Shown: positions 18,001 to 21,000 of the stretch, piece by piece
How positions within the stretch are numbered: the stretch's first letter is position 1
How the letters are laid out: every line of letters begins with the position of its first letter
Assembly (NCBI GenBank): GCA_041687695.1
Contig: JAWLBL010000020.1
Location: forward strand, 64,001-128,000
Length of the DNA stretch: 64,000 bases
Direction of reading: 5' to 3'
DNA from: Myxococcota bacterium
GTDB lineage: Bacteria > Myxococcota_A > UBA9042 > PHBI01 > JAWLBL01
Made by a program: the position numbers

Positions 18001-21000
18001 GGCGCTCGGCGTCGGTCGTGGGCGGCTGCGTGTTGGGCATGTCGACGACGCTCGTGATGCCGCCGACGACGGCCGAGCGGGTCGCCGTGCGCCACGTCTC
18101 CTTGTGGGTGTGGCCGGGCGTGCGGAAGTGGACGTGCGTGTCGACGCCACCGGGGAGCACGGCGCGTCCGCCGAGATCGATGACCTCGCGCGCCGTCCCG
18201 TCGACGTCCCCCAGGGCGACGATGACGCCGCCCTCGACGGCGAGGTCGCCGCGGACGTCACCTTGGGAGGCGATGAACAGGCCGTCGCGAAGGATGAGGT
18301 CGTACATGGGCCGGAGGCTAACACCAGCCGGAGCGCGACGCACGCGGCGTCCGCAGGCCCCGCAGCCGCGTCGGCGGCTCGAGGCCTCAGAGCCAGCCGG
18401 CCTGCCGGTACCAGTCGGCCGTGACCTTGGCCCCCTGGTGGAAGTCGGTGGTGGGCGCCCAGCCCAGGGCGTCGCGGATGGCGTCGGAGCTGACGAGCCA
18501 GTTGTCCTGGCGCATCTCGGCGACCTTGTCCGGCGTCAGCATGACGGCCTTGCGCGCGACGCGGCCGTAGGTCGCCGAAGCCCGCGACGCGGCCTCGAAC
18601 ACCCAGACGGGCAGGCGCACGGCGCGCGGCTTGACGCCCAGGGCGGCGCCGATCTCGCGGCCCAGCTCGGGCCAGGTCCAGGCGTGGCCGTCCTCGACGA
18701 AGAACAGGCTGCCGCTGTCGTGCGGGCGGGTCAGGGCCTGCTCGAACGCCCGGCACAGGTCGTCGATGTAGACGACCGACAGCCGCGAGCGCCCGGAGCC
18801 GGGGACCGGCAGCACGCGCCGCTTGACCATCTGGAAGAAGCGCAGGACCTCTCGGTCGCGCGGCCCGTAGACGACCGGCGGCCGGATGATGGTCACGGGC
18901 AGGTCGCCCGACAGCGCCTGCAGGCGCTGCTCGCCGATGAGCTTGCTGCGGCCGTAGACGCTGACGGGGTGGGGCTCGTCGCGCTCGCTGATGGGCGCGA
19001 AGTCGGGGGCGCCGGGCCCGGCCGCGGCGATGGACGACGTGTACACGAAGCGCTGGAGCTGCGGGTTGGCCCTCAGCGCGGCCTCGGCCAGGCGCCCGGT
19101 GCCGGCGCCGTTGACGTCGATCATCTCGGCTTCGCTGCGCGCCTTGATGAGCCCCGCGATGTGCAGGACCGCGTCGCAGCCTCGGATGCCCTCCTCGAGG
19201 CGGTCGGCGTCGGCCATCGTGCCCTCGAAGGTCTCGACGCCCAGCGCGTCCAGGGCCGACGTGTCGCTGGTCTTGCGGACCAGGGCACGCACCTCGTGGC
19301 CCGCGGCCCGCAGGTGCTTGACGGCGTGCGTGCCGACGAACCCCGTCCCGCCGGTGACGAAGACGCGCATCAGCCCACCTCCTCGGGCGTCCGCCGCGCC
19401 GCCGCGTCGCCACCCGCCGGGGCCGCCGCCGCCTGGGCTTGCACCAGCGCCTTCTCGTAGATGCGATGGCGCCGGTGGACGTTGCCGCCCATGAGCTTGA
19501 TGCCCATGTTGATCTTGTCGTTGTCCTCGAGGGTCCAGCCCAGCTCGCCGTGGGTCAGCCCGAGGCGCGCGCCGCGGTCGTTCATCTCGGCGTACAGCAG
19601 CACGCTCAGGCCCTTGCCGCCGATGCCGGTGCCGCGGAACTTCGGCCGGATGCCCAGGGCGACGAGGCGCGCCGACTTGTAGGGGACGCGCTTGACGCGC
19701 CAGAAGAGCTTGGCGAACCCGAACGGCAGCAGCTTGCCGTCCAGATCGGCGATGTGCTCGTGGATGTTCGGCAGGGCGAAGCTGATGGCGGCGGGCTCGC
19801 CGTCGATCTCGGCGATGAGGCACAGGTCGGGGACGACGAAGAGCTTGAGGTCGGCGGCCAGCTTGGTGATCTCGGCGTCGGTGAGCGGCACGAACCCCCA
19901 GTTCTTCGCCCAGGCCTCATTGAAGATGTCCATGATGATGCGGACGTCGCGCTCGAGCGCCTTCATGTCGATGGTGCGGACCGTGACCCCCGGCGACTTC
20001 TTGGCGGCGTCGGCCATCTGCCGGATGGGCTTGGGCAGCTCGCCGGTCTTGTAGCCCCACGAGAAGAGGTCCTTGGCCTTGGTCAGGCCCTGGGCCTCGA
20101 GCAGCCGCGCGTAGTAGGGCGGGCTGTGGCTCATCATCGGGTAGGGCGCGATGTCGTGCCCTTCGACGAGCACGCCGCACTCGTCGTTGATGGTGAAGCT
20201 GAACGGGCCGCGCATGCTGGCCCGGCCGCGCGCGCGCAGCCAGGCCTCGGCGCGTTCGAGCAGCGCCTTGGCGACCGCCTCGTCGTCGATGGCCTCGAAG
20301 AAGCCGAAGAAGCCCGCGCCGTCGCCGTGGACCCGGTCGTGCTCACCGTTGATGTGGGCGCTGATGCGGCCGACCGGCTTGCCGTCGCGGAAGGCGACGA
20401 AGAGCTCGGCCTCGCCGTGACGGAAGAACGGGTTCTTGCGGCGGTCCAGGAACTCGCGCCGCTCTTGCAAGAGCGGCGGCACCCAGGCGGGATCCGGGGT
20501 CTCGCCGCGGTAGACCACCCAGGGCATCCGGATGAAGGCCTCGAGGTCCTTCTTCGAGGTGACGGGGCGGACGGTGACGGACGTGGTCACGGACATGGGC
20601 GCCTCTCGCGGGTGGCGGCGGACCCCGCGGCCCGGCGCAAGGGGGCCGTATAGATCACGGCACCCGTGGAAGCAACGGCCCGTCGTGCCAGGCGGGGACC
20701 CCGCGCAGCACCTCGGCGAAGTCGCCCGGGTCGGCCCGCCGGATCGCGGGCGACCACATGCCGACGCTGGCTCCGAGCCGCGCGATGAGCTCGCCCGGGT
20801 GGTCGCCCGCCTCGCGGAAGGTCGCCAGCGCCAGGTCCCCCTCGCGCTTGGACAGCTTGCGGCCGCCCTCGTCGGTCACCAGCGGGTGGTGGCCGAACCG
20901 CGGCGCCGGCTGGCCCAGCGCCTCGTGGAGCAGCAGCTGCCGCGCCGTCGAGCCCAGCAGATCCCGCCCACGCACCACGTCCGTGATCCCCATCGCGCCG

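Follow-up and report, generated by a model that had tools for sequence, protein, structure and literature searches.

How would a bacterium that appears to have neither LPS, nor the Lpt transport system, nor a recognisable fatty acid synthase use a pair of ceramide genes? The question is raised by two overlapping genes in the window, by which we mean the whole stretch of 64,000 nucleotides analysed here (on contig C20 of the genome G000), and an earlier note on this DNA had answered it with scavenged fatty acids and with ceramides in place of LPS. Genes of G000 were called with our own codon-score script (5,714 genes), tblastn on the DNA was run alongside, and the genome was compared with a class sample of 101 genomes and an order sample of 18 genomes that includes G000.

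Ceramide genes in the window and on contig C8

The pair consists of a bCerS-like N-acyltransferase of 408 aa with a double GNAT (19370..20596, minus strand; Pfam GNAT) and a CerR-like extended SDR of 327 aa (18387..19370, minus strand; Pfam Epimerase), and the two ORFs overlap at a TGATG stop/start, that is, they are translationally coupled. Upstream lies a glutamyl-Q-tRNA synthetase-like (GluQ-like) gene (20655..21623, minus strand; PF00749), to which we assign no role in lipids, and downstream an amidohydrolase gene of the dihydroorotase/allantoinase-like kind (16973..18307, minus strand; PF01979). The window opens with the 3' end of a gene for a FadL-family outer-membrane channel (1..382, plus strand; PF03349, E 9e-10; whole gene C20:63057-64382).

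As reference queries, the annotated sphingolipid cluster proteins of E. coli BL21(DE3) were searched against G000 by tblastn. The window GNAT was the sole match to YghO (39% over 380 aa, E 6e-78), which we take to be the bCerS of E. coli BL21, and the window SDR was the top match to the BL21 gene at the CerR position (31%, E 3e-34). The SDR is of the extended type, its glycine-rich motif, S112, Y139 and K143 are all invariant (5/5 aligned), and the intact S-Y-K set is combined with linkage to ceramide genes, as we would ask of a CerR; for a bCerS, the GNAT likewise has the full-length homology to the bCerS-position protein and the double GNAT. Alignment of eight bCerS homologues left 35 columns invariant, and a PDB sequence search with the bCerS matched no solved structure. 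A second CerR-like paralogue on contig C26 matches the BL21 CerR-position gene at 30% and is 42% identical to the window SDR.

Homologues of the window bCerS from the class and from Bradymonadales (45-56%) adjoin Spt-like or CerR-like genes, and the nearest named homologues of the pair are those of Bradymonadales MAGs (45-51%). A CerR-like gene (43-47% to the window SDR) lies directly 3' of bCerS in seven of nine related loci and an AOS gene is present in five of the nine; in the closest relatives, bCerS directly adjoins Spt or an ACP-AOS pair. The bCerS of G000 clusters with four class relatives (FastTree, support 0.945). In Caulobacter, 3-ketosphinganine is proposed to be N-acylated and then reduced, CerR being a periplasmic enzyme that reduces oxidised ceramide (PMC11087976). 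By analogy, the window GNAT would N-acylate 3-ketosphinganine as bCerS, and the window SDR as the predicted CerR would reduce the oxidised ceramide.

The pathway genes AasR, AcpR, Spt, bCerS and CerR are known (PMC11324152), and all five types of the Caulobacter and BL21 pathway were matched in G000 at 27-39%, the ACP most weakly. BL21 AasR (35%) and Spt (36%) matched at 87.9-93.0 kb of contig C8 (tblastn), where a FAAL gene is divergent from a row of OmpA-barrel, ACP and AOS genes; the ACP is directly upstream of the AOS and the FAAL two genes off. With an AcpS-type PPTase encoded on contig C6, G000 thus has the clustered FAAL, dedicated ACP and AOS together with the PPTase that make up the tripartite AasR-AcpR-Spt system. 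The FAAL scored 541 against PRK09192 (cut-off 600), and the FAAL-OmpA-ACP-AOS cluster is syntenic in genomes G001 and G004.

The AOS has serine palmitoyltransferase as its best PDB match (E 4.5e-76), followed by Kbl (7e-67), cysteate acyltransferase (1e-63) and BioF (3e-52). Aligned to 8guh/3a2b, it keeps the AOS PLP residues and the Spt-type GTFSKS lysine motif, and reads RVNVG at the site where the Spt structure has RFLNG. It is under both NCBIfam Spt cut-offs (NF047600, 326 vs 640; NF047599, 317 vs 500) and scores slightly higher on the bioF model (336, cut-off 426). In a FastTree of 39 sequences it forms a clade of its own with G001 and G004 (1.0) outside the BioF/Kbl group (0.985), and the backbone support for its position relative to true Spt is 0.099. 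The earlier note had called this gene (g01888) equally close to BioF; the caveat is largely lifted because G000 has a separate bioB-F-D-A operon on contig C15. BioF and Kbl were accordingly ruled out, the tree placing the AOS outside both. We read the AOS as probably Spt-like in action, though it is outside the curated Spt families. What the note called a complete ceramide pathway holds in that the genes are intact, but unlike the Caulobacter and BL21 pathway they are split over two contigs with the AOS outside the Spt equivalogs, and unlike the hosts of that pathway G000 is without LPS or FAS.

Among the 18 order genomes, a stand-alone FAAL-ACP-AOS cluster is found in three, a PKS ending in an AOS in twelve, neither in three and both in none. 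The PKS-AOS is a single chain of ~2,150 aa, mostly beside a FAAL, and one of the twelve is in fragments. Pseudomonas produces sphinganines with a PKS and an AOS (SgaAB; PMC12134224), and the fused chains of the twelve genomes can be likened to this pair; G000 lacks such a PKS-AOS and has the stand-alone ACP and AOS instead. bCerS was again found in one of the 18 genomes, namely G000.

Ceramide genes and LPS across the class

Strong bCerS matches occur in 5/101 class genomes, four of them also without ketoacyl synthase (KS), and two further genomes have matches at E 2e-12. With so few, ceramide is not a general LPS substitute, and one genus is without LpxC, KS and Spt-like gene alike; as a class story, ceramide in place of LPS is not supported. 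Most LPS-free class members thus seem to be without this ceramide route.

The same distribution could mean that the genes make a minor, developmental or non-serine amino-lipid, in the last case one condensed from, say, alanine, glycine or cysteate, with an outer membrane of phospholipids and lipoproteins such as relatives without these genes must have. Such a reading would suit the 96/101 class genomes that are without a strong bCerS though 99/101 are without LpxC, the 26/101 without an AOS at E<=1e-40 (genus g25, 5/5) and the cysteate acyltransferase among the PDB matches of the C8 AOS, and it is further favoured by seven sampled class AOS sequences that cluster with E. coli Kbl (support 1.0), so that several AOS positives are Kbl. 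We nevertheless consider it unlikely, as the AOS is matched best by Spt in the PDB, the ACP and FAAL stand next to or near it, and the bCerS of the closest relatives is directly beside Spt or the ACP-AOS pair. The location of bCerS-CerR on another contig than the AOS counts against the ceramide account that we prefer.

By its gene content G000 is a diderm: it has BamA (over cut-off), a Skp-like protein, TamB with an Omp85 partner, LolA, LolC/D/E-like proteins, TolQ/B/Pal, MlaC/D/E and OmpA-type barrels, as well as PlsB, three PlsC-like genes and GpsA, and E. coli queries for LolB and MlaA gave no match. Searches by phmmer and tblastn gave 0 matches for LptA/C/D/E/F/G, LpxB/C/K and WaaA. LpxC and LptF/G are also absent by Pfam models, LptD, LpxK and WaaA were searched with E. 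coli queries instead, and the LpxC of genome G020 as query had 0 matches. The gene set of an LPS producer (LpxA/B/C/D/K, WaaA, Kds and Lpt genes) was accordingly not recovered from G000, and the absence of lipid A/Kdo synthesis and Lpt beside BamA, TamB, LolA and Mla, claimed earlier, was confirmed by profile and tblastn searches. A match to KdsA was ruled out as a DAHP synthase. Sterol/hopanoid cyclases were considered as LPS substitutes, and none was over cut-off in 5/5 genomes tested.

The near-absence of LpxC from the class was reproduced in the larger sample, with LpxC in 2/101 genomes and LptF/G in 1/101. G020 has both, and in G097 the lpxC gene is on a 1.6-kb contig of a genome without LptF/G; G017, a single contig, is without LpxC, LptF/G and FabA/Z. 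In the phylum (n=251) LpxC was found in 123 genomes: 1/47 in 14 listed class families (G000 aside) vs 122/203 in the other phylum genomes, and the latter number means that the LpxC model works on these genomes. Two phylum families beyond the listed class families had LpxC in 0/23 and 0/17, which indicates that LPS loss is not confined to the class. In the order around G304 (Bradymonadales), LptF/G was found in 2/48 genomes and LpxC in 0/3. Judged by these genes, LPS loss is class-wide and common to Bradymonadales too.

Fatty acid synthesis and its replacement

For KS, G000 gave short thiolase-type matches only, and it is without AT, FabA/Z, ELO, FabV, PlsX and AccA/D; FabZ, FabD and PlsX had 0 matches by phmmer and tblastn. 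Profiles of the relatives' synthases matched KR, MaoC and AOS domains only, with no synthase fragment, contig ends included. Neither an elongating KS accompanied by AT and dehydratase, as in FAS II, FAS I or PKS-type synthesis, nor an ELO was thus found in G000, in agreement with the earlier statement that it has no recognisable fatty acid synthase (KS, AT, FabA/Z, FabD). Several candidates were set aside: an elongase route for want of an ELO match; FabV/Ter, with 0/5 in the KS-less genomes tested; a FabH-like gene on C22, considered as FAS starter, which is under cut-off and shares its operon with genes for a ThDP enzyme and a sensor kinase; and a type III PKS on C36, whose neighbourhood presumably resembles an alkylresorcinol gene cluster. 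None of the biotin carboxylases is of the AccA/D type, and they are beside methylmalonyl-CoA mutase or leucine-degradation-type genes; promiscuous malonyl-CoA formation by them is conceivable. The number of FadL-like channels does not discriminate as a sign of scavenging, since there are eight in G000 and eight in the FAS-I-bearing G017. Otherwise G000 is biosynthetically capable, with purine, histidine, arginine and biotin genes.

FabF was over cut-off in 0/101 class genomes (FabF-like matches under cut-off in 39), which points to loss of canonical FAS II class-wide. Type A of the class is a fungal/mycobacterial-type FAS-I of ~3,300 aa, with the domain set of the CMN/fungal-type FAS-I, in 32/101 genomes but not in G000; it is present in 8/8 genomes of family f6, there in a fas-acpS-acc operon with AcpS and a multidomain ACC. 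Type B, a PKS-like chain of the order KS-AT-ACP-KS-ACP-KR-DH-PPTase beside carboxylase genes, occurs in G001, G004, G009, G019, G027 and G055 and also in Bradymonadales G308, G309, G312 and G337, and we infer that it serves as FAS. Some class genomes have two-gene Pfa-like systems (type C), and 27/101 have no KS (type D; 18/68 of the high-quality genomes and 5/5 of genus g25). In the order, some KS was found in 17/17 genomes besides G000, the sole KS-less genome of the 18. The lack of a FAS is therefore no class rule, with FAS-I in 32/101, a PKS-like synthase beside acetyl-CoA carboxylase in others and KS missing from 27/101, nor a class-level story, as most order relatives carry type I megasynthases. 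Comparative genomics indicates that most relatives replaced FAS II and that the G000 lineage lost the replacement too. A FAS2 homologue of Myxococcota is noted in 10.64898/2026.05.08.723234.

Could the synthase simply be missing from the 63-contig assembly? One type I synthase of 15-17 kb with an ACC operon would suffice, the relatives hold the whole FAS in one locus, and some KS is present in each of the 17 other order genomes. G020, which has LpxC and LptF/G yet no KS in 900 contigs, shows that dropout or chimerism happens. However, the completeness of G000 is 99.27%, synthase fragments are absent genome-wide with contig ends included, and KS-less genera exist elsewhere in the class. In addition, the site at valS is intact and empty: the gene order in G009 is dnaG-rpoD-..-valS-[3,410-aa synthase]-carboxyltransferase-RND-tlyA-like, and in the same block of G000 (C8:54155-43878) the tlyA-like gene comes after small genes that span ~4 kb without an N gap. 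Usually lptCAB is upstream of rpoN, and lpxD-fabZ-lpxA-lpxB is downstream of bamA-skp, as is the case in E. coli; in G000 both places are mid-contig, and neither set of neighbours is there. Since these conserved blocks are intact mid-contig without the genes, the absence of LPS, Lpt and FAS looks real, more than a bin artefact. The recurrence of KS-less genomes has a binomial p of 7e-8 to 9e-5 against 6-10% random dropout, with the reservation that kin are not independent. A gap in the bin thus seems very improbable.

The lipoate and biotin pathways normally draw on FAS. G000 has LipA, two LipB and the bioB-F-D-A operon, with 0 matches for LplA (phmmer and tblastn) and no clear BioC, so the octanoyl and pimeloyl thioesters would come from beta-oxidation, FAAL loading or an unrecognised route. 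The LipA/LipB and bio genes point away from fatty-acid auxotrophy of G000. The presence of LipA/LipB and of the biotin operon, with LplA missing, also leaves room for a CoA-dependent synthesis route, namely reverse beta-oxidation on CoA without KS or malonyl-ACP, by which they would be accounted for. A thiolase would do the condensing, a FabG4-type enzyme the ketoacyl reduction and a double-hotdog protein the dehydration, and the enoyl reductase would be an MDR or an acyl-CoA dehydrogenase. A candidate operon is present at C2:313352-317086, where the reductase is over the PRK08261 cut-off (544 vs 410) and the dehydratase resembles HadAB; we liken it to FadA2-FabG4-HtdX of mycobacteria, for which a CoA-dependent role has been proposed. 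G000 also has six thiolase and 16 FadJ-type matches and several MDRs. This route to the fatty acids of G000 is still doubtful to us, because thiolase condensation is, as general knowledge has it, thermodynamically unfavourable, FabV/Ter is missing from all five KS-less genomes tested, and FabG4-like genes, with 15 candidates per genome scored, occur in 8/27 KS-less genomes vs 29/74 others and in 0/20 of family f12. Since it is not enriched in KS-less genomes, the FabG4 operon was rejected as their general substitute.

Discussion

It seems that the class long ago gave up LPS, all of Lpt and canonical FAS II, that most relatives replaced FAS II by a one-chain synthase, and that the G000 lineage may then have lost this synthase too. 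Fatty-acid scavenging by G000 is what we infer from its gene content: long-chain fatty acids would be taken up from prey or surroundings via FadL-type channels. Activated to acyl-CoA, they would enter phospholipids through PlsB/PlsC, and activated to acyl-ACP by the C8 fatty acyl-AMP ligase with ACP and AcpS, they would feed ceramide synthesis; the genes for both branches are present and the flux is presumed. The C8 AOS would, from its homology and the chemistry in Caulobacter, condense acyl-ACP with serine to 3-ketosphinganine, which the window bCerS would N-acylate and CerR reduce to dihydroceramide. Export to the outer membrane without Lpt would most likely use a TamB/AsmA-type bridge or an MCE/Mla system. 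Ceramide would then be one component of the LPS-free outer membrane in the G000 lineage, not a class-wide substitute. The whole account, with scavenged fatty acids and dihydroceramide in an LPS-free and Lpt-free outer membrane, appears to us about evenly poised between right and wrong.

Sorangium cellulosum So ce56 is reportedly an LPS-lacking myxobacterium (Keck et al. in 2011), and S. cellulosum contains sphingolipids; it would be an LPS-free myxobacterial diderm like G000, but of another lineage. Sphingomonas, Borrelia and Treponema are known to have lost lipid A naturally (PMC9393093). Like G000, Sphingomonas, an LPS-free genus with a glycosphingolipid outer membrane, has no LpxC, LpxB or WaaA and has sphingolipid genes; it is described as keeping the entire Lpt system, and myxococci as having one lptFG (10.64898/2026.04.12.717747). 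Whereas Sphingomonas retains Lpt for sphingolipid export, G000 has no LptA/C/D/E/F/G, and 100/101 class genomes are without LptF/G. The one sphingolipid export mechanism that we found in the literature uses Lpt paralogues, LptF2/G2, which Caulobacter is stated to need for sphingolipid transport (preprint 10.64898/2026.04.12.717747), and a search of G000 for LptF2/G2 gave 0 matches. With ceramide genes and no Lpt, the lineage must therefore use another export route.

The observation of the earlier note is real for G000, though narrower than its title. Each element has precedent, Sorangium and Bradymonas being partial ones, and what is new is the combination in G000, chiefly the occurrence of ceramide genes with no Lpt at all; the wider result is the class-wide loss with replacement synthases. 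With LPS or Lpt missing from 99-100/101 genomes, this diderm class amounts to a large experiment of nature on the requirements of an outer membrane. It is a tentative proposal, falling slightly short of an even chance in our judgement, that G000 represents a large-genome, otherwise self-sufficient diderm with a ceramide-containing, LPS-free outer membrane and no Lpt or KS-based synthesis, with Lpt-independent sphingolipid export and either fatty-acid auxotrophy, in a genome of free-living size, or an ACP-independent CoA route. G000 would then stand for one of the states of a remodelling that spans the class and Bradymonadales, with loss of LPS, Lpt and FAS II and a gain of type I synthases. 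Our literature search, which covered freely accessible main texts as distinct from subscription papers and supplements, revealed no published loss of LPS, Lpt or FAS in class UBA9042; none of the papers naming the class is titled for its envelope, and the available text of a UBA9042 paper (PMC11821767) does not mention lipopolysaccharide.

Bradymonadales resemble G000 in a FAS II reported as incomplete, in bCerS-CerR homologues and in the LpxC and LptF/G counts given above; according to published accounts they are without FabB/F and FabI and scavenge from prey (PMC7460792, PMC11509652). A KS is present in 48/48 of their genomes, unlike in G000, where KS is missing altogether, and in three genomes examined by Pfam a synthase of ~3,100 aa is beside carboxylase genes. 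Auxotrophy calls that are based on absence consequently need caution. What was taken for 'fatty-acid auxotrophy' in Bradymonadales may reflect a type I synthase that was overlooked, and a real KS-less minority seems to exist in UBA9042. No paper on polyketide synthase together with fatty acid biosynthesis in Bradymonas came up in the literature outside subscription papers. Described strains are stated to contain iso-C15/iso-C17 acids, measured for one strain after broth growth (PMC7188933). The genome tables of the Bradymonabacteria and ceramide-pathway papers may also bear on gene distribution. As Bradymonadales show the same gene pattern and have cultured members, the matter is testable now.

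Results and discussion

A PKS-like synthase on one chain, encoded in the fetched loci at L245:8682-18014, L246:7783-17070, L248:8441-17998, L249:3906-12458 and L047:8842-19071, has two ketoacyl synthase (KS) domains, the second of which retains the NACAST cysteine motif. A PPTase is fused to the synthase or adjoins it, and genes for a biotin carrier and a carboxyltransferase are also adjoining. It is probably the fatty acid synthase of four Bradymonadales genomes (G308, G309, G312 and G337), because its KS was the only one detected there. Relatives of this synthase were found in at least 586 stretches, with occurrences in Actinomycetota, Acidobacteriota, Chloroflexota, Thermoplasmatota and one Heimdallarchaeota MAG. 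Bradymonadales also carry bCerS-CerR (L199-L206), often accompanied by a divergent pair of ACP and the Spt-like enzyme (AOS), and most of them are missing LptF/G. They are a cultured order, one where the envelope question could be tested.

Within the class, family f6 has a fas-acpS-multidomain ACC operon of the fungal/mycobacterial type (L042:5031-19899, likewise in L043-L046), and the AOS genes of G046 (L148) and G026 (L150) are attached to clusters in which type II KS genes occur together with HMG-synthase-like genes and those for enoyl-CoA hydratase. LpxC, LptF/G, KS and Spt-like AOS were sought in four genomes of genus g25 (G030, G061, G067 and G076; 2.6-3.5 Mb) and none was found; TamB and FadL-like genes are present in G061, the sole g25 genome checked for them. 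G020 (L151, L063) is the only class genome having LpxC together with LptF/G, although no KS was found in it, and this gene set may reflect a basal lineage, a chimera or dropout.

In the source genome, an OmpA-family beta-barrel gene lies between the fatty acyl-AMP ligase (FAAL) and ACP-AOS genes of contig C8 (L008:11969-13225) and is kept in relatives G001 and G004. Desaturase and cyclopropane-synthase-like genes (C3:352620-353642 and C12:179396-180247) are dispersed, whereas their counterparts in relatives, about 50% identical, are clustered with PKS-AOS. A second FAAL cluster (C56, L072:178-6098), containing FAAL, SDR, ACP, a B12 radical SAM enzyme and acyl-CoA dehydrogenase, is possibly a pathway for a modified lipid. 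Two DAGK-family lipid kinases (L276:4912-5853 and L277:2098-3111) are candidate ceramide or sphingoid kinases. One sits next to valS at the site that is empty of the synthase; in G019 and G027 the synthase is bordered by homologues of the other. On C26 (L136:2760-15133), a paralogue of CerR and an MlaFEE-F/MlaD cluster are separated by about 8 kb; this is a candidate neighbourhood for lipid transport.

The window also encodes a secreted cysteine-rich repeat protein of 717 aa (28372-30525, + strand), the C-terminal end of which resembles a sorting tail of the myxobacterial type.
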